Source: a phage. Taken from it: 64,000 nt of DNA. Location of the stretch: the sequence record NC_100372.1; one strand, 5' to 3'. The notes beneath the pieces are model-generated. The model was given only the letters and a program-made list of their open reading frames with translations. It had not been told where the DNA came from and ran no database searches. Position 1 is the first letter of the stretch. The number at the start of each line of letters is the position of its first letter. A program made the position numbers and the translations under genes. Below, one piece after another: positions 2,920 through 56,169 of the stretch.

Positions 2920-4104
2920 TCAAGCTTTAGCTAAAATGGCGCTAAACTCTTCACCAAACTCTTTTACAATCTTCATCAGGTTTGGGTATGCTTTGATCAG
3001 CTGAGCAACGATCTTGTCCCTGCCTTTACCAATAAGTAAGGCATTTCCTAAGGCGTTAGGTTTCATCATCGCCATAAAGACTGAGAATACAAAGTCTCGG
3101 TTCTCATCCTTGAAATTTTCCCAAAGGAAATCAAGGAAGTTTGCCACACAGCTGACAAGATCTTCGTCGGAGATACTTGCATTTTCCATCATATTACGAA
3201 TAGCGATACAACCTTCTGACCCCAGAATCCACAAGATGTCTGGCTGCTTAGGACCTACATATTCTTTGCAGCCTCCTGCCATAATCCGACCGATTTCTGG
3301 CAAGTTTCGTTTCTTGGTGTGGTAGGTCCAAATTTCTACCGCTGCAGTGTGACCAATTGCACCTTGTAGAAGGACACGGGCCATAGCGTCAGAAATAATA
3401 CCGCTGTCAAAATCGTGCAGGATGTCAGATGCAGCAACCCAAGATCGCGGTGTGGCAAAAGATGGACAATTAATCTCAGCCATGGCCTCATAATTATCAA
3501 TGGCTGATGGGACTCTTTTCAGATATCCAATTACAGAGGAGTGAACCCCATTAAGGAATGCGTAGTCCTCAATAAACACCTCTGCATTGCTTGTAACTTC
3601 TACAATAATAAAGCGGTTAGCTAGAGGAGCTTCGAGCGCCGAAAGAACAGCACCATCTGTAGCACGGTTACCTGCAGCTACAAAAACAGAACCCTTAGGA
3701 AATGCATAGGTACCGCACTTGTGGTCGAGCATAATTTGCATTGCAACCTTCTGCAGGTAGTTATCCGCATGAGTAAGCTCGTCTAGAAAGATAATTCCGC
3801 TCCAGTCCGGATCTGCAGGCCAAAATTCTGGAATTGCAAACACTGTACGTGTAGTCCCATCCGACTCCACAGGGATAGGCAGTCCAGATAAGTCAGCAGG
3901 ATCTTTATCTGACAACCGCACGTCAACCAGGTTGTCATCTCGCTCACCGAACATATTATCAGCAATCTGCTTCATCACCTGGCTCTTCCCCACACCCATC
4001 GGTCCTAAAATCAGGACAGATCGATTATGACGCTGGGCAAATTGAATAATAGCTGGCAACTCGCGGACAGTGATTTGACCACTTTCGAATACGTTTCTTG
4101 ACAT
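2920..4104 (-). CDS. MoxR/CobS-like AAA+ ATPase
   Basis: 394 aa. Walker A GPMGVGKS, Walker B-like IIFLDELT; size and layout fit MoxR/CobS-family AAA+ proteins. Confidence 0.65.
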   Translation of the reverse strand: MSRNVFESGQITVRELPAIIQFAQRHNRSVLILGPMGVGKSQVMKQIADNMFGERDDNLVDVRLSDKDPADLSGLPIPVESDGTTRTVFAIPEFWPADPDWSGIIFLDELTHADNYLQKVAMQIMLDHKCGTYAFPKGSVFVAAGNRATDGAVLSALEAPLANRFIIVEVTSNAEVFIEDYAFLNGVHSSVIGYLKRVPSAIDNYEAMAEINCPSFATPRSWVAASDILHDFDSGIISDAMARVLLQGAIGHTAAVEIWTYHTKKRNLPEIGRIMAGGCKEYVGPKQPDILWILGSEGCIAIRNMMENASISDEDLVSCVANFLDFLWENFKDENRDFVFSVFMAMMKPNALGNALLIGKGRDKIVAQLIKAYPNLMKIVKEFGEEFSAILAKA

Positions 4105-4798: not shown

Positions 4799-4800
4799 TA

Positions 4801-5058
4801 TCAGTCTACCTCTTCTTCTCGTTGCAGTTCAAGATACCCATAGGTCTGGATATCTTCAAAGGTGTGGAACTCTCCATCTGCCGCTAAGGCACGGACAACC
4901 TGGCATAGAGTTTTATAAGGTACTTTCTCCAAACCCAGATTCAGCGCAGGAAAAACCTTATCTAAGTCAACAAAATATACAAACTGTAGCTCACCAGTTT
5001 CAAAAGGCGTATCTTCGATAAACATCTTCTCGGCATTAGTTAAGATTTGCACTTTCAT
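4801..5058 (-). CDS. hypothetical protein
   Basis: 85 aa ORF in operon context. Confidence 0.4.
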   Translation of the reverse strand: MKVQILTNAEKMFIEDTPFETGELQFVYFVDLDKVFPALNLGLEKVPYKTLCQVVRALAADGEFHTFEDIQTYGYLELQREEEVD

Positions 5059-5414
5059 TATTCTGCCTCCTCTTCTTTTTCTTCAGCATTAGTTTCAGTA
5101 CCACCCCACTCTGGAGTTTCCACCTCGACAGTAAACTCACGCACTACACGGTAATTGCCCATGAAGCGCTCCACTTCTTCAAGGCTTATGGAGAGGCCAT
5201 TGGCAACCAAGTCTGCAGCACCCTTCTCTACCAGGTAGTCCAGATTGGCTTCCAAGGCTTCAGGCTCAAACCCTGTCAATGCAATCATATAACCTTCCCC
5301 TTCATCAGGGAGGGCAATACAGCCCAACTGATTTTCTTTAAAAAAGCAGTGACCATCACTATTGATTGGTTGCTCATTGCAGTAAATAGCTGCACGATAA
5401 GTAACTTTAGACAT
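5058..5414 (-). CDS. hypothetical protein (acidic C-terminus)
   Basis: 118 aa ORF. Its first 24 nt (ATGTCTAAAGTTACTTATCGTGCA) are repeated exactly, in inverted orientation, inside the plus-strand gene at 7257-7280. Confidence 0.5.
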   Translation of the reverse strand: MSKVTYRAAIYCNEQPINSDGHCFFKENQLGCIALPDEGEGYMIALTGFEPEALEANLDYLVEKGAADLVANGLSISLEEVERFMGNYRVVREFTVEVETPEWGGTETNAEEKEEEAE

Positions 5415-5426
5415 TGATAGGCCTCC

Positions 5427-5705
5427 TTAGGCAACTGTCATTTTACATTCTTGAAATTTTAGCACAAGACGGTGATTGTGTCTAGTGTCTAAAAAGATTT
5501 TTTCAACCATCAGGCACACGGTATAACCGTCTGTCTTGTTGACAACAAAATCCCCAGGGTGAGGGAGAATGTCCCCAGGATTGGGGAAACATAACCCGCT
5601 CAAGAAGGCATCATCGGTGGTGGACTTAATGGATTTCCACACACTATCTGCCTGAACATTCTCACCAACATAATATACACTACCACATGACTTCATCATA
5701 GTCAA
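5427..5705 (-). CDS. hypothetical protein
   Basis: 92 aa ORF; 4-nt overlap with upstream gene. Confidence 0.4.
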   Translation of the reverse strand: MTMMKSCGSVYYVGENVQADSVWKSIKSTTDDAFLSGLCFPNPGDILPHPGDFVVNKTDGYTVCLMVEKIFLDTRHNHRLVLKFQECKMTVA

Positions 5706-6601
5706 ATCTCCGCGTAAATTAAACTGGAATCAGTATACTTCTTTAGTGGGTAAATATCCTGTCCATAGATGCCGTCATTAAACACCTCATCTACCCAAAG
5801 GCTACACTTATATCCCATCATCTCTAAAACACCCATCTCTTCTTCGGTAAACTTATCACCGCTCTTGCAAGATGTCAACACCTCATTCTGTACTCTTGCT
5901 ACCTCGAAGCGATTATTGGCAATATCGCTATTGGCGATCAAATACTCACCTAAAGGGTGTGCGGCATTAAAGATGCACAGTGGGCGGTTGACGTAATAGT
6001 CTCCAGGTGTATAAAAATTATTGAGGTCTTTCACTAGGACATTCTTATCAGTCACTTCATTTATAACATCATGCATATCGCACATCTTTATATGTTTGAG
6101 GATTCCATCCCCCATCACAAAATAAAAACTTGCTGAGACACTCTCGGCATAGATCTTACTAGATCCGTTGTAGTTGTATTTTACTCGGATGCTAACGGGG
6201 GTTTTTCCTGTCGCGTTAGCCATCATCCAAAGAAATGGCAGCTCATACTTCTCCTCTGAGGAAACAAAAGGTGAAGTTGCCAGAGATCGGAAACCTCCAG
6301 AGAAGTTGAAAGTTACAGAACCGCTCCGGCGGTATGATACTGCGTATTCCACTTTTATATCAACATATCCGTTGGAGTAAGTATGCCCTCCATTATCAAG
6401 GTATGTCCACTTATCTGACCCAGATACCAACCTCCGCTCAATTACCTTCATCACTACAGGGATTAGCGGATTAGTACAAACCGATTTTGAAGTAGCTTTA
6501 TCATCCAAAGCCTCGTAAATTGCAGAAAGGATATCACCTGCTGAGAGATTGGTTGTGATATCTTGTTTCCACCTGGTGCTAAAACTGTTAAGATTTGCCA
6601 T
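5702..6601 (-). CDS. hypothetical protein
   Basis: 299 aa ORF, first gene after the minus-strand early promoter; SD AGGAG about 9 nt upstream of ATG. Confidence 0.5.
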   Translation of the reverse strand: MANLNSFSTRWKQDITTNLSAGDILSAIYEALDDKATSKSVCTNPLIPVVMKVIERRLVSGSDKWTYLDNGGHTYSNGYVDIKVEYAVSYRRSGSVTFNFSGGFRSLATSPFVSSEEKYELPFLWMMANATGKTPVSIRVKYNYNGSSKIYAESVSASFYFVMGDGILKHIKMCDMHDVINEVTDKNVLVKDLNNFYTPGDYYVNRPLCIFNAAHPLGEYLIANSDIANNRFEVARVQNEVLTSCKSGDKFTEEEMGVLEMMGYKCSLWVDEVFNDGIYGQDIYPLKKYTDSSLIYAEI

Positions 6602-6641
6602 GAGTAAGTGCTCCTATGTTAGTTTTCTTTTGAATGGGTGC

Positions 6642-6670
6642 ACTATATCTGGGATTTAGAGTAAAGTCAA
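6642..6670 (-). promoter_or_regulatory. sigma70-like promoter, minus strand (TTGACT-17-TATAGT)
   Basis: On minus strand: -35 TTGACT (plus 6665-6670), 17-nt spacer, -10 TATAGT (plus 6642-6647); positioned upstream of 5702..6601. Confidence 0.5.
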
Positions 6671-6683
6671 CACGTTTTTGAGG

Positions 6684-6712
6684 TTGACATCTACCCAGGC
6701 GCTTGGTAAGAT
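6684..6712 (+). promoter_or_regulatory. sigma70-like promoter, plus strand (TTGACA-17-TAAGAT)
   Basis: -35 TTGACA 6684-6689, 17-nt spacer, -10 TAAGAT 6707-6712; back-to-back with the minus-strand promoter. Confidence 0.5.
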
Positions 6713-6743
6713 TTCTCCACCTACAGAGAACAAGAGACAACTC

Positions 6744-7721
6744 ATGAATCTTGAAAAATATTATACACCAGAAGAGTTAGAGCGCTTGCTCAAAAAATAC
6801 AGACGCAAACAGAATAACGCACGGAAACGGGATATAGAGTTCAACCTGTCATGGGAAGAATATCTCCTATTTGGTAAAAAACTTTTAGGAGAGGGAGTAT
6901 GCGACTATACCCTTATACCTTTCGACATGCACACAGATGAAAACGGACTGGGAAATCCTTTCTACCCATCTCTAGAGCGGATAGATGATGAAGGTCCTTA
7001 CGCAATTGATAATTGTTGTGTGGTAGGATTGAGGTGCAACTCTCTGAAGGACTGTCTGGTAGATAAAAAGACTGCAGTCTTGATTAAAGACGAAACTGAT
7101 CGAAAAATTGTCCAGCAGATGATGCTCCACCTGAGCGAAGAGCGTATGGAGAAATTGAAAGGTGATTATACTTTTGAAGATTTCATCTTGCAATATGGAA
7201 CGGAAGAGGATAAACTAGCACTCTTTGACGAAGAAGAGGAGGAAGATATGCTACCTATGTCTAAAGTTACTTATCGTGCACCCAAGAAGCACATTTCTGA
7301 CATTGTAAACGAACCTATCACAGAAGAGATTGAAGAAATGACGCAACAGGTACATGAAGAGGAAAAAGAGACTCAGGAGGTCGAAGAGGGGCTTACAGAA
7401 GAGGTTCCTGCACTACCTGATGATGTTGAGATTGCCAAAGCTTACACCTTCTATTGTCAAACGTTCTACGATGTAGGCATGAAAGTTGATCTGTCGTTCA
7501 GCCAATTTAAGAGCACATACATTCGAAAATGTTGTGCTTTAACTGGTGAGCGTCTCGGGGCCGGACTTAAACCACTATTAGTTACCGACTGGAACAAAGG
7601 TTTCACCAAAGGTAACTTCATGGTGGTATCTCCAATCATGGAAAAAGCTATGACAGACCTTATGAAGACCACCCGCATGACAATGACCGAGTTGGCTGGT
7701 ATTTTCAAGCACGTTAAATAA
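6744..7721 (+). CDS. protein with two degenerate HNH-like (HNH_3-type) modules separated by an acidic linker
   Basis: Track ORF 6678..7721 starts at TTG inside the promoter; ATG at 6744 (MNLEKYY) is the likely start. Module 1: ARKRDIEFNLSWEEY ... CDYTL ... SLERIDDEGPYAIDNCCVVGLRCNSLK; module 2: CALTGERL ... VTDWNKGFTKGNFMVVSPIMEKA. The His of the S-I-D-H-I-D consensus is Arg or absent. Confidence 0.45.
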   Translation: MNLEKYYTPEELERLLKKYRRKQNNARKRDIEFNLSWEEYLLFGKKLLGEGVCDYTLIPFDMHTDENGLGNPFYPSLERIDDEGPYAIDNCCVVGLRCNSLKDCLVDKKTAVLIKDETDRKIVQQMMLHLSEERMEKLKGDYTFEDFILQYGTEEDKLALFDEEEEEDMLPMSKVTYRAPKKHISDIVNEPITEEIEEMTQQVHEEEKETQEVEEGLTEEVPALPDDVEIAKAYTFYCQTFYDVGMKVDLSFSQFKSTYIRKCCALTGERLGAGLKPLLVTDWNKGFTKGNFMVVSPIMEKAMTDLMKTTRMTMTELAGIFKHVK

Positions 7722-7725
7722 TGAC

Positions 7726-7742
7726 AGGGGCCATTGGCCCCT
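7726..7742 (+). other. GC palindrome / stem-loop (GGGGCC-ATT-GGCCCC)
   Basis: Perfect 6-bp GC stem between 6744..7721 and 7755..9215; no clean U-tract follows. Near-identical to the stem of the terminator at 13437-13452. Confidence 0.35.
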
Positions 7743-7754
7743 TCTGGAGTTTTA

Positions 7755-9215
7755 ATGGATAGCAGAAGTTCAGAAATCATTACCGCACAAAAAGATGATG
7801 CCTTGCGAATGCTGCAGGCCGCTCGCATGTATCTTCTTGAAAAGCTGCCGTTTTATGGCACACTGTTGTCAGGGTTGCAGTTCGTAGAAAACCACACATG
7901 GTGCTCCACTATGGCAACAGACCATAAACGCATCTACTACAGCCCTGAGTTCATTATGGGGTTGGCAGATGAGCGTAAAACCATTCTTAAAGCATCTCTG
8001 ACTGACAAGCAGTTTGAGATGGCTGAGGTTTTCTATTCCCCAAAATCTGTGAAAGAGGTGGCATTTCTTCTGTCACATGAGGTGGGGCATATTATCTGTG
8101 ATCATCTGGTCCGTGGTAAAAGCTTTGAGCCGGAACTGTTCAATATTGCTTGTGATCACGTTATCAACACAGGTCTTGTGGTTGACTTTAGCAAGCCTCC
8201 TTGTGTTTTCTTCCCGAAGGGGAAAAGCACTGAGTTCGTAAAAGGTAAGCCTTTTGGCTTCTTAGCTAATTGCTACTGCGACATGAAGTTTCATGGATGG
8301 ATTGCTGAGAACGTCTATGCAGTTCTTGATAAACAAAGAGATCAGAATGGCGGTAAAAGTAAGAACGGTAAAGGTGAGAACTCCCAAGGAGATAAACGAC
8401 AAACCGATGATCACATGAGCGGGAACGGTGGCACTAGTGATGATCTTGGAAAGGCTATGGGGTATGATCAGCCGCAACCAGTAATCAGTCAATCTGATAA
8501 AGATCAGGCCATGCAGGATTCTGGTGACATGTTGGAAGCAGCAATGCAAGCTTCAGGAGGTCGTTGCCCCGAGGCGGTGCGCGAGTTTGTCAAAAACAGA
8601 GGCAAGCCTGTAATCAATTATATAGATATTATTAAGCAACGTATGTTATCTAAAAGAAAGGCTGAGTTAACCTACAGAAAACCTGGTCGCCGATCTGGGT
8701 CTTTGACCACCACAATGCGAAAAGTTGGAGCTATAAACAAGAATCAACACGTTATTGTTCCTGGTCGTAATCCGGAAAACACTATAGATATTGTAGTGGC
8801 TTTAGACGTTTCTGGGTCGATCTCACAAAGAACTTTAAAGAAAATGTTCAATGAGATCACCGGGTTGTGCAATCTGTATAAAGAGTTTAAGGTTACGATG
8901 TTCTGTTGGTCAACCGAGGTTGGAGAGGTTAAAGTATACACTCGCGGTAACATCGATGAGATGATCAACTATGAGGTCCACTCAACATGGGGCACAACAG
9001 CCGCCTGCGTGTTCGAGTATCTAGATGCTAACATACCGAATGCAAAAGATGTCATCGTCCTTACCGACCTCTACTTTGAGCATAACTTTGAACAAAAGGC
9101 TGTTGACAACAAGTGGAAAAAGTACGATACTTTATGGGTTCTCACCGAAGGGTATAATAAAAATTATATCCCGAGCTTTGGGAAAACTGTGGAATTAATC
9201 GAGTACGCTAAGTAA
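7755..9215 (+). CDS. vWA-domain protein with N-terminal HExxH metallopeptidase-like domain
   Basis: Track start 7734 is TTG; ATG at 7755 has SD GGAG 5 nt upstream. HEVGH motif (LLSHEVGHIICDH) in N-terminal half; MIDAS-like DxSGS (IVVALDVSGSIS) in C-terminal half; Gly/Asp/Ser-rich linker between. Confidence 0.6.
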   Translation: MDSRSSEIITAQKDDALRMLQAARMYLLEKLPFYGTLLSGLQFVENHTWCSTMATDHKRIYYSPEFIMGLADERKTILKASLTDKQFEMAEVFYSPKSVKEVAFLLSHEVGHIICDHLVRGKSFEPELFNIACDHVINTGLVVDFSKPPCVFFPKGKSTEFVKGKPFGFLANCYCDMKFHGWIAENVYAVLDKQRDQNGGKSKNGKGENSQGDKRQTDDHMSGNGGTSDDLGKAMGYDQPQPVISQSDKDQAMQDSGDMLEAAMQASGGRCPEAVREFVKNRGKPVINYIDIIKQRMLSKRKAELTYRKPGRRSGSLTTTMRKVGAINKNQHVIVPGRNPENTIDIVVALDVSGSISQRTLKKMFNEITGLCNLYKEFKVTMFCWSTEVGEVKVYTRGNIDEMINYEVHSTWGTTAACVFEYLDANIPNAKDVIVLTDLYFEHNFEQKAVDNKWKKYDTLWVLTEGYNKNYIPSFGKTVELIEYAK

Positions 9216-28623: not shown

Positions 28624-28656
28624 GCATAAAAATAAACCCCGCCGAAGCGGGGCTTT
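28624..28656 (-). terminator. intrinsic terminator (RNA CCCCGC-UUCG-GCGGGG then UUUAUUUUUAU)
   Basis: Same 16-nt hairpin core as at 2501-2516; immediately downstream of stop of 28661..32806. Confidence 0.55.
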
Positions 28657-34435: not shown

Positions 34436-34466
34436 ACAAACAAAAAGCCCCCGCCGAAGCGAGGGC
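34436..34466 (-). terminator. intrinsic terminator (RNA GCCCUCGC-UUCG-GCGGGGGC then UUUUUGUUUGU)
   Basis: Variant of the CCCCGC-UUCG-GCGGGG core, downstream of stop of 34474..38283. Confidence 0.5.
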
Positions 34467-55191: not shown

Positions 55192-56169
55192 TTATTTGGT
55201 AGATTCTGCACGTGCACGAGCAAGTGCTTTTGCAACGTTTTCAGCAAGAATTTCTTCTGCGGATTTTGCAATATCATCCACAACAGGTTCGCCATCATTA
55301 CCATGTTCAGTGGTGGCAAACTCTTCTTTGGTTTTATGCACCTCTGCTTCCAGCTCTTTAATTTTGGCTTGAGCTTTCTCCAGCATAGCTACGATAGGTT
55401 CGTTAGCTTTTTCCAGCATGAAGTCAACCAGGGTTGCATGATCTTCTTCACCAACAAAGCTTAAAGCTTGAGCTTTAGCCAGCATTTTAGCTTTTTCAAC
55501 TTCAACCTGGGCCTTGATGATTTCTTCAGCTTTACTCTGGGTTGCTTTCAGCTCTTCTACTTGCTTCAGCAGATCCAGATACTCTTTAGTTTTGGTTACG
55601 TCCACCGGATTCTCCTCGGTATTTGCGGATTTTGCAACATCATCCACCTCGGTAGTTTTATCCACCTCAGTAGGTTCCTGTACCGCCTTGATCAGGTTCC
55701 CTTCTTTATCGAAGAGATCAGCGGTTACTTGTTCAAAAATCTGTTGTGTTTTTAACAGACTGTACTGATCTACCACACTAAGCTGCTTGCCTTCTTTTGC
55801 AGCTTTATGAATGGTCACGTTATCACAACGCTCTTCCAGCCATGCAATGCAAGACTCTGCGTCAGCTTGTGCCCATTCCCAATCAGGATGCTCTTTAGCC
55901 CAAGCTTCCTCTTCAATCTCAAAACCAAGCATGTGTGCGAGTGCTTTGGCATCGTCATACCACATATCGAAGAAACGACGCAGGTATTCTTCAAAACTCA
56001 GCTCCACAGTAACTTGGCGAAGTGCCTTAACAATATCGTCTGTTAACTGCTCAGGCTGAAGATCACTCTTCATCAAAAGAGATACAGGTCTGTTGTTAGC
56101 GCTATAGCCTTGCGCCTTATGGCACAGGGCAATCCCCTTCTCTTTAATAGTGATTGTTTTTTCAGACAT
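55192..56169 (-). CDS. scaffolding protein
   Basis: 325 aa; highly acidic, helical, coiled-coil-like (EELKATQSKAEEIIKAQVEVEKAKMLAKAQ); between protease and capsid. Confidence 0.5.
   Translation of the reverse strand: MSEKTITIKEKGIALCHKAQGYSANNRPVSLLMKSDLQPEQLTDDIVKALRQVTVELSFEEYLRRFFDMWYDDAKALAHMLGFEIEEEAWAKEHPDWEWAQADAESCIAWLEERCDNVTIHKAAKEGKQLSVVDQYSLLKTQQIFEQVTADLFDKEGNLIKAVQEPTEVDKTTEVDDVAKSANTEENPVDVTKTKEYLDLLKQVEELKATQSKAEEIIKAQVEVEKAKMLAKAQALSFVGEEDHATLVDFMLEKANEPIVAMLEKAQAKIKELEAEVHKTKEEFATTEHGNDGEPVVDDIAKSAEEILAENVAKALARARAESTK

Follow-up and report, generated by a model that had tools for sequence, protein, structure and literature searches.

The window, by which we mean the entire 64-kb stretch of DNA that was analyzed, belongs to a Vequintavirus, namely an rV5/FV3-like coliphage of Escherichia coli. 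The features of the locus considered here are as follows:

5058-5414, minus strand: gp008-like ORF of 118 aa, matching PHROG 12908 (ORF prediction and PHROGs match)
5391-5414, minus strand: putative donor copy of the repeat, the first 8 codons (MSKVTYRA) of the gp008-like gene (exact match)
5422-5428, minus strand: Shine-Dalgarno (SD) sequence AAGGAGG of the gp008-like gene (read from the sequence)
6642-6712, both strands: predicted divergent pair of sigma-70-like promoters between two operons, located between the two arms of the repeat (promoter scan)
6744-7721, plus strand: gp011-like ORF of 325 aa, with an Srd/endonuclease VII-like N-terminal module (N-module), an acidic hypervariable linker and a conserved C-terminal module (C-module) (PHROGs matches and cross-genus alignment)
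7026-7513: Murica-type recombinant patch in an otherwise ECP26-type genome (site-by-site comparison)
7238-7250, plus strand: SD-like GGAGG, encoded within a run of Glu codons, 5 nt before the ATG at 7248 (MLPM...) (read from the sequence)
7257-7280, plus strand: putative acceptor copy of the repeat, a derived 24-nt patch in the acidic linker of the gp011-like protein, codons 172-179 (exact match)

The product of the gp008-like gene is labelled a hypothetical protein in ECP26, FV3 and Murica, and the gp011-like protein is annotated in relatives as an 'anti-sigma factor' or as an 'HNH endonuclease'. PHROG 3118 spans the latter protein end to end, and its residues 13-130 also match PHROGs 1400 (Srd), 4592, 1035 and 3322, the E-values of the N-module against the endonuclease VII, 'endonuclease' and Srd PHROGs ranging from 1e-10 to 1e-13; in the rV5 genome paper, gp11 is described as a probable Srd homologue. 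Pfam, NCBIfam and PDB sequence searches with gp011, gp008 and the neighboring genes returned no useful match for these genes, and the labels of gp011 and gp008 come from PHROGs only. The C-module yielded no independent profile match, and its similarity to the N-module falls short of significance (BLASTP E=13; hhalign E=0.045, probability 1%); its labelling as a second HNH-like module is not established by these comparisons. Both modules are encoded together by one ORF in Vequintavirus, Seunavirus, Mydovirus and Aeromonas phages, and the linker is the most variable region of the protein, both within and between genera. The predicted promoters are TTGACT-17-TATAGT on the minus strand and TTGACA-17-TAAGAT with TG on the plus strand; promoters are also predicted in the Gotham record, and the rV5 genome paper is cited in support of the pair.

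The initial annotation had reported an exact 24-nt inverted repeat shared by these two genes, and the report is borne out by an exact-match search combined with shuffling. The 24-mer ATGTCTAAAGTTACTTATCGTGCA has two exact occurrences in the window, at 5391-5414 (minus) and 7257-7280 (plus), and no further match there even with up to 3 mismatches tolerated; none of 100 dinucleotide-preserving shuffles contains it, and the chance expectation for such a match in the window is about 5e-10. It forms the exact part of the top inverted repeat of the window (30 nt at 93% identity), and identity ends precisely at its edges (TCA vs CCT upstream, GCT vs CCC downstream). The arms are separated by 1,842 nt (5415-7256), and the promoter pair at 6642-6712 lies within this segment, so the repeat does bracket the divergent promoter region, as had been stated. 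Both copies are sense-oriented in their own mRNAs and each opens with an in-frame ATG. ORF translation confirms that the minus copy constitutes the first 24 nt of the gene at 5058-5414; the plus copy had been placed directly after a poly-Glu linker and indeed follows FDEEEEEDMLP, and given that 7257 lies 513 nt, or 171 codons, from 6744, its ATG is in frame with the ORF 6744-7721.

Comparison with related genomes, which the initial annotation had proposed as a check, covered about 119 sequenced relatives (records), with 22 Vequintavirus genomes sampled for detailed site reading. The minus-strand copy is present in all 22 sampled genomes with at most 2 substitutions in each (synonymous in FV3 and IMGVR_10279; GTT>GCT, Val>Ala, in slur12 and isim), and the gp008 start is also found in genomes with the ancestral linker; judged by these alignments, the donor copy is nearly invariant across the genus. 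The plus-strand copy was detected in only 27 of the ~119 records and is absent from about three quarters of the relatives. Murica has both copies; ECP26, the closest relative (97.5% identical), and FV3 have no plus copy and a linker 12 nt longer. Across the relatives without the plus copy, the linker, MQDFKNFMA(D/N)R(A/G)ANKH, is 9-12 nt longer. The alleles fall into three classes, of the window type (27 records), the FV3 type (~25) and the rV5/slur16 type (~65), with no intermediates found among the ~119 records. Around the plus site, the window and the 9 other genomes sampled with the derived allele have the same sequence, and so does a metagenome contig with this allele for the 101 nt read; this is consistent with a single origin. 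No IMG/VR contigs with the derived allele were found.

Polarity was set with an outgroup consisting of one clade (four IMG/VR contigs, the linker being read in three), with 62-65% amino-acid identity. The outgroup carries a homologous linker, QELREFMEKRAEKH; its sequence MTPAQELREFMEKRAEKHIKDIV aligns with MSPMQDFKNFMA(D/N)R(A/G)ANKHISDIV and not with MLPMSKVTYRAPKKH. Given this long-type linker in the outgroup, the MSKVTYRA linker is the derived one, and on the evidence of the alignments the plus copy is both derived and lineage-restricted. The gp008 orthologue of the outgroup, though homologous (E=7e-9), begins with a different N-terminal sequence. The linkers of Seunavirus and Mydovirus are not alignable with that of Vequintavirus, so these genera could not be used to polarize the change.

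In our assessment, the plus copy most probably results from one templated mutational event in a forerunner of the Murica/FFH2-type gp011 allele, was subsequently spread by recombination and has no dedicated function. The ancestral linker reads ...GAT ATG TCA CC(A/G) ATG CAG GA(C/T) TTT AAA AA(T/C) TTC ATG GCT (G/A)AT CGT G(C/G)A GCC AAC..., and the gp008 start, in inverted orientation and 1.84 kb away, reads ...TTA CCG ATG TCT AAA GTT ACT TAT CGT GCA GCT.... As the alignment of the two indicates, the patch is flanked by microhomologies already visible in the ancestral alleles. On the right these are ATCGTGCAGC (10 nt) in the rV5 type and ATCGTG (6 nt) in the FV3 type; on the left, most ancestral alleles have ATG (3 nt), and only O157 typing phage 5 has ACCGATG (7 nt), a weak left-hand microhomology that counts against this explanation. 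DNA synthesis would have been primed at one microhomology, would have copied the gp008 start and would have rejoined at the other, either by a replication template switch or by microhomology-primed repair synthesis (ectopic copying). Such a step would have replaced 25 nt (QDFKNFMA-D/N) with 13 nt (SKVTY) from the gp008 start and extended a short imperfect inverted repeat to a perfect one of 29-32 nt, a change that the hypervariable acidic linker presumably tolerated. Later substitutions (TTA>CTA, GCC>CCC, AAC>AAG) would have shortened the identity, which amounts to 29 nt in the Murica type and to only 24 nt in the window because the flanks differ in the ECP26-type background.

Of the properties expected of a templated mutation, a reverse-complement copy, a polarity set by an outgroup and pre-existing microhomology are observed at this site. 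The 13-mer specific to the derived allele, TCTAAAGTTACTT, occurs at these two sites only, with 0.002 occurrences expected in 2 x 64 kb. Independent mutations would require a 12-nt deletion and 9 substitutions within 57 nt, and a single 29-nt templated tract with 3-4 substitutions gives the same change. The 3-4 substitutions that adjoin the tract match neither donor nor ancestor, which leaves a single clean event unproven. Template-switch mutations typically join sites tens of bp apart, in one fork or hairpin, a proximity that arms 1,842 nt apart do not have. That there was a single event, that it proceeded by template switching or repair synthesis, and that its outcome was neutral are inferred. 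Among the three readings offered in the initial annotation, a relic of duplication comes closest: a lineage-specific copy was indeed made, but it is a templated patch of about 13-29 nt rather than the duplication of a gene or segment.

Homologous recombination among co-infecting vequintaviruses would then have carried the allele to other backgrounds, including the ECP26-type genome of the window. Site-by-site comparison shows that all 141 consecutive informative sites between 4807 and 6649, and most of those up to 7025, are of the ECP26 type in the window; nearly all those between 7073 and 7505 are of the Murica type, and from 7514 the ECP26 type returns. By this measure the window is a mosaic, and the Murica-type patch of ~450 bp is the source of the plus copy in its lineage. 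Diversity adjoining the repeat within the allele class is 0.2-1.4%, a level at which selection need not be invoked for perfect identity over 24 nt. Neither copy varies among the sampled derived-allele genomes and, with flanks that are themselves only 0.2-1.4% diverse, co-variation of the copies is uninformative on constraint. The neutrality that we propose for the patch is argued from the absence of a selection signal in an allele class that is too young, or too low in diversity, for selection or constraint to be shown. The derived allele occurs in several species-level backgrounds, that of the window among them, and the repeat lies near the middle of the imported patch; this spread and position could reflect selection for the linker variant or a recombination hotspot instead of drift.

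Given the sense orientation and the in-frame ATG of both copies, the copied sequence might act in RNA, either as an internal start at 7257 that yields the C-module alone, a possibility raised in the initial annotation, or as a shared repressor or small-RNA site coupling gp008 and the gp011 C-module. We regard such a role as very unlikely. The Glu-run-encoded GGAGG lies upstream of 7257, and a weak promoter-like match (9/12) ends at 7252. However, promoter-like sites are at chance level (9 vs 5.7 +/- 2.6), and the GGAGG at 7238-7242 is 14 nt from the ATG at 7257, which has no SD 5-9 nt upstream, and 5 nt from the ATG at 7248. The Met codon at 7248 is retained in every Vequintavirus allele and in the 62-65% outgroup; read from the sequence, GGAGG with this ATG is the only plausible context for internal initiation, and it is independent of the repeat. 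The SD of the donor (5422-5428) lies outside the copied tract and therefore was not transferred to the linker. Neither copy, nor the ancestral allele, lies in RNA that folds better than shuffled sequences, and both copies score at background level (z = 0.3 and 0.0). The single-ORF organization of gp011 in all four phage groups and the lack of the plus copy in ~75% of relatives also argue against this role. The initial annotation had named absence or degradation of the repeat in close relatives among the refuting observations, and on this count the functional readings fail, given that ECP26, the closest relative, has no plus copy.

The repeat had also been considered a site for inversion. As a substrate for inversion of the 1.84-kb segment 5415-7256, which comprises gp009, gp010, both promoters and the gp011 N-module, it would yield a gp011(1-171)-gp008 fusion and a stand-alone C-module equipped with the gp008 ribosome-binding site. 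The geometry is right, with both arms of an exact 24-nt inverted repeat (29 nt in the Murica type) in frame and the gp008 SD inside the invertible segment, and consensus assemblies are blind to minor isomers in a phage stock. Nevertheless, all 115 near-full-length relatives (115/115) are collinear with the window in one piece, and no record covered at least 80% of a BLAST query made from the predicted inversion junction. The sole metagenomic contig with the derived allele has the normal junction, and among 5.8 billion proteins the predicted fusion has no counterpart, no match covering more than 62% of it. Protein matches of odd length in this search represent frameshifted or truncated gp011 or gp008-gp007 read-through, not rearrangements. 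Both orientations were accordingly not observed among relatives, junction matches, the metagenome contig or proteins, and there are no inversion isomers in the databases searched. Furthermore, there is no mention of an integrase, invertase or recombinase in the rV5 genome paper, a scan of eight ORFs around the site found no recombinase domain, 24-29 nt make a very short substrate for homologous recombination, and three quarters of the genus do not have the repeat. We therefore consider inversion at this site highly improbable. It is scarcely credible that in derived-allele vequintaviruses the repeat supports occasional recombination-driven inversion of this divergent-promoter cassette, with a subpopulation in which the Srd-like N-module is fused to gp008 and the C-module stands alone; if true, this would be a crude, recently born switch of promoters and domains in a strictly lytic phage.

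Since polarity depends on one outgroup clade, the linkers of distant genera being unalignable, the reverse order of events deserves mention: the MSKVTYRA linker could be the older one, perhaps the remnant of an ancient fusion with a gp008-like start, replaced by the QDFKNFMA linker in most lineages. This is highly improbable as well, given that the outgroup linker shows clear homology with the long allele across ~20 residues, that the long linker is common to both long-allele classes, themselves different, that the short allele has almost no internal diversity, and that exact identity over 24-29 nt with a gene 1.8 kb away would not outlast an ancient origin. Coincidental identity, or acquisition of the linker segment from an unrelated phage or host source sharing the sequence, would accommodate the substitutions at the tract edge that the internal donor leaves unexplained, but is extremely improbable in view of the expectation and shuffles given above and of an exact donor 1.84 kb away in every sampled genome, in register with the flanking microhomology.

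The repeat has the look of a mutational scar rather than of a switch or of a concealed start site. It is genuine but unremarkable, and it opens no long-standing question. Its value is that of a clean natural example: the donor, the acceptor and the ancestral state can all be seen, along with the microhomologies at the edges and the subsequent horizontal spread, for a templated multinucleotide change that probably altered five to nine codons of a phage protein at once, across an unusual distance of 1.84 kb. The case illustrates that phage genomes can acquire short perfect inverted repeats, and genes that seem to share an N-terminus, with no function involved, and caution is advisable before such repeats are taken as regulatory or invertible elements. 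The linker allele can also serve as a marker to track recombination among Vequintavirus species.

Comparison with known systems places the locus in perspective. Like Srd of phage T4, a decoy of host sigma-70/sigma-38, gp011 has a region (residues 13-130) that matches the Srd, 'decoy of host sigma70', PHROGs; unlike T4 Srd, it has an extra acidic linker and a conserved C-module, and its N-module also matches endonuclease VII/HNH-type PHROGs. In the invertible segments of the Gin/Cin/Hin type and in shufflons, inverted repeats flank promoters and 5' parts of genes, and inversion swaps in-frame coding ends. The repeat described here similarly flanks a segment with promoters and 5' gene parts, but no recombinase was identified in the eight ORFs around the site, neither orientation variants nor fusions were found in the databases searched, and the repeat is missing in most of the genus.

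Quasipalindrome template-switch mutations were reportedly characterized classically in phage T4 rII and E. coli, in the work of Ripley. The present case resembles them in that an imperfect inverted repeat would have become a longer perfect one through a single multinucleotide change templated by the other arm, with short matches at the switch points and several adjacent codons altered together. It differs from them in that their arms are a few to ~70 bp apart and capable of forming a hairpin, whereas here 1.84 kb and two genes intervene, and in the net 12-nt deletion, by which 9 residues became 5. Such mutations, with homogenization of inverted-repeat arms, have been described in E. coli reporters (PMC7202029) and in yeast coding genes (PMC8604942), where searches for template switches used spacers of up to 70 bp; extension of imperfect inverted-repeat arms by template switching alters several adjacent codons (PMC8604942, PMC7954356, PMC7202029). 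In its outline, the four-point model of short-range template-switch clusters (PMC7954356, 10.1101/2021.11.26.470150) likewise accounts for substitutions together with an indel as one reverse-complement copy of nearby sequence; as outlined there, the model assumes that both sites lie in one replication fork, a scale that 1.84 kb reaches or exceeds. According to PMC7954356, the alternate template may be distant in linear sequence, and the present case appears more akin to microhomology-mediated (FoSTeS/MMBIR-like) switching, which does not depend on linear proximity.

The 24-mer ATGTCTAAAGTTACTTATCGTGCA occurs exactly twice in the 64-kb window, in opposite orientations, and this pair is the top inverted repeat of the sequence. 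No additional sites were detected in the window when up to 3 mismatches were allowed, and 100 dinucleotide-preserving shuffles yielded no matches; the repeat is genuine, and chance does not account for it. The copies and the promoters that they bracket are:

5391-5414, minus strand: minus copy, first eight codons (MSKVTYRA) of ORF 5058-5414
6642-6712: divergent promoter pair, between the two copies
7257-7280, plus strand: plus copy, inside ORF 6744-7721, 171 codons after its start and hence in frame

Exact search, ORF frames and a promoter scan thus bore out the initial description of an exact 24-nt, in-frame inverted repeat around divergent promoters, the position of which agrees with that of the bidirectional promoters between rV5 genes 10 and 11 (PMC3606486). 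The segment between the copies also includes gp009, gp010 and the N-terminal half of the plus-strand gene. The acidic run FDEEEEEDMLP immediately precedes the plus copy, and in the window the identity between the copies stops precisely at the 24-mer edges.

Two other repeats were noticed. At three places (2489-2516, 28625-28652 and 34437-34464), an A-rich stretch leads into the GC-rich hairpin CCCCGCCGAAGCGGGG; the arrangement looks like a reused intrinsic-terminator module. A 24-nt direct repeat (55258-55281 and 55624-55647, 96% identical, spacing 366 nt) lies within ORF 55192-56169 on the minus strand, which encodes an acidic, coiled-coil-like protein of 325 aa and adjoins a capsid-like gene; the repeated VDD(V/I)AKSA motif may stem from a duplication within a scaffold-like protein.

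The window belongs to an rV5/FV3-like myophage of E. coli, in the genus Vequintavirus: positions 4800-7800 match 119 phage records (ECP26 is the best, at 97.5%), 115 of which align as a single collinear piece. Between 16 and 20 UNVERIFIED 'Campylobacter phage' records (MG0656xx, e.g., L012; host C. jejuni) share 91-93% identity with this region; the host assignment is probably erroneous. On the minus strand lies the homolog of rV5 gp008 (annotated as hypothetical; PHROG 12908), and on the plus strand that of gp011, annotated in relatives as 'anti-sigma factor' or 'HNH endonuclease'. Searches of Pfam, NCBIfam and PDB sequences with gp011 returned no match; PHROG matches to residues 13-130 carry the labels Srd anti-sigma factor, decoy of sigma-70, and endonuclease VII, and the gp011 homolog was described as a probable Srd homolog in the rV5 paper (PMC3606486). 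Cross-genus comparison shows that one ORF encodes the whole of gp011 in Vequintavirus, Seunavirus, Mydovirus and more distant phages; its two conserved modules, not significantly similar to each other, are joined by an acidic linker that is hypervariable in both length and sequence. Some assemblies contain a gp011 frameshift in or just past this linker, and there is one gp008-gp007 read-through fusion (proteins P0013, P0016 and P0019); such forms might be genuine variants whose C-terminal module is out of frame, or else artifacts of sequencing through homopolymer or acidic runs.

Among the neighbors, gp012 (7755-9215, plus strand) combines a DUF2201_N metallopeptidase-like domain (Pfam E=1e-28) with a VWA-like domain (3.5e-11), and the opposite operon encodes a MoxR-like AAA ATPase (2920-4104, minus strand), which suggests a MoxR-VWA pair divided across the divergent promoter. 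The names given to gp012, 'HNH endonuclease' in RefSeq and 'anti-sigma factor' in other records, both appear to be propagated mis-annotations. Likewise, the label 'putative alpha 1-3 fucosyltransferase' that many relatives attach to the gene at 5702-6601 (minus strand) finds no support in the present analysis, in which this gene had no Pfam match at E<0.1 and matched only PHROG 12338, of unknown function.

A short-query BLAST search together with 22 fetched genomes sorted the gp011 linkers into three classes, and no intermediate alleles were seen in this survey:

Window-type allele, linker MSKVTYRAPKKH: 27 records, 25 distinct phages, e.g., Murica, FFH2, nomine, magaca, Gotham, nomo, PMBT16
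FV3/ECP26-type allele, linker MQDFKNFMANRGANKH: about 25 records
rV5/slur16-type allele, linker MQDFKNFMADRAANKH: about 65 records

Murica carries both copies of the repeat; ECP26 and FV3 possess the minus one alone (with two synonymous changes in FV3), and their linker (ATG CAG GAT TTT AAA AAC TTC ATG GCT AAT CGT GGA GCC AAC AAG CAC) is longer than that of the window by 12 nt. At the linker position, an outgroup clade in IMG/VR (protein identity, 62-65%) carries MTPAQELREFMEKRAEKHIKDIV, clearly a homolog of the long alleles; the MSKVTYRA linker is thus the derived state. The gp008 start was found in all Vequintavirus genomes sampled, regardless of linker type; the outgroup gp008 ortholog is homologous (E=7e-9) with a different N-terminus. 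Copying ran from the gp008 start into the gp011 linker. Linker class and species assignment are discordant (nomine is assigned to species APECc02, yet has the derived allele; isim and Pr121LW are assigned to murica, yet have the rV5-type allele), and because the classes cut across species in this way, gp011 recombines often.

The three states align as follows:

rV5-type ancestor: TCACC(A/G)ATG, then CAGGACTTTAAAAATTTCATGGCTG, then ATCGTGCAGCC
Donor (opposite strand): TTACCGATG, then TCTAAAGTTACTT, then ATCGTGCAGCT
Derived Murica allele: CTACCGATG, then TCTAAAGTTACTT, then ATCGTGCACCC

Donor and acceptor already matched over 6-10 nt on one side and 3-7 nt on the other; these flanking matches predate the event, in which the 25 nt of ancestral linker between them were swapped for 13 nt from the donor. 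The derived-specific 13-mer has no other site in the window (expected, 0.002). Independent mutation would have to delete 12 nt and substitute 9 positions in a stretch of 57 nt; the templated account takes a 29-nt tract and 3-4 leftover substitutions, namely TTA>CTA (synonymous), GCC>CCC, AAC>AAG and, if the ancestor was of the rV5 type, AAA>AAG. This pattern is the hallmark of a multinucleotide mutation that was templated and lengthened an imperfect inverted repeat. The initial suggestion of a relic of duplication was right in spirit, as a templated copy, with the qualification that what was copied is the gp008 start into the gp011 linker.

Site-by-site comparison of informative sites in the window, ECP26 and Murica showed that the window agrees with ECP26 at 141/141 consecutive sites across 4807-6649 and at most of the subsequent sites up to 7025, with Murica at nearly all sites across 7073-7505, and again with ECP26 from 7514 onward. 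This alternation identifies the window phage as a recombinant, an ECP26-type genome with a Murica-type patch of ~450 bp gained via homologous recombination:

7026-7513: Murica-type patch, gp011 linker and C-terminal module, delimited by informative sites

The patch is roughly centered on the repeat. Because the minus-copy flank in the window is of the ECP26 type, identity extends over 24 nt here as opposed to 29 nt in genomes of the Murica type. A 140-kb contig of an NCBI 'Escherichia coli' assembly encodes a near-identical protein (P0001) whose linker is the same.

An internal translation start at 7257, also raised initially, is unsupported: the copied tract does not include the donor Shine-Dalgarno sequence (AAGGAGG, 5422-5428), the sole Shine-Dalgarno-like element near the plus copy (GGAGG, 7238-7242) is 14 nt from this ATG, and no RNA structure above background was detected. 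A sigma-70-like match (TTGACG-16-TATGCT, 9/12; 7225-7252, plus strand), one among a chance-level number of promoter-like matches, ends 5 nt before ATG 7257 and might in principle yield a leaderless C-module transcript; in the ancestral alleles its -10 hexamer is weaker (TATGTC, without the final T) and, for the rV5 type, its spacer is shorter by 3 nt. Separately, the Glu-run codons (7238-7250, plus strand) place GGAGG 5 nt before an in-frame ATG at 7248 (MLPM...). All Vequintavirus alleles and the 62-65% outgroup retain this Met, so ATG 7248 is a possible, repeat-independent candidate internal start. Flanking diversity within the derived class is only 0.2-1.4%, so identical 24-mers are expected without constraint, and co-variation of the two copies is uninformative at this diversity.

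Inversion of the promoter segment is likewise unsupported. All 115/115 near-full-length relatives are collinear across the region; no record matched the predicted junction (92-nt query) at >=80% coverage; a degenerate pattern fitting either junction had no hit in IMG/VR and a single one in a metagenome scan, a contig with the normal junction. Among 5.8 billion proteins, none corresponds to the predicted in-frame fusion of gp011(1-171) with gp008; coverage reached at most 62%, which equals the gp011 portion plus the eight shared residues. Protein matches of odd length were rejected as rearrangement products, being frameshifted or truncated forms. No recombinase domain was found in the neighborhood of the repeat, and the rV5 paper mentions no recombinase. 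The initial annotation had named absence from close relatives as counting against both inversion and internal initiation, and the repeat is indeed missing from the closest ones. Low-frequency inversion within phage stocks appears highly improbable.

Altogether, the repeat is probably a mutational footprint, recent and confined to one lineage, that was left in a tolerant linker and subsequently spread by recombination; we are still more confident that it is derived and templated, and less so as to the precise mechanism of copying. A replication-fork switch, nascent-strand fold-back or microhomology-primed repair synthesis would each be compatible with the sequence. Comparable events have been described at quasipalindromes and as short-range template switches (PMC7202029, PMC8604942, PMC7954356), but the arms in such surveys are <=70 bp apart, compared with 1.84 kb here; microhomology-mediated switching does not need linear proximity (PMC7954356). 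In kind the mutation is a known one, of which the repeat is an example at unusually long range.
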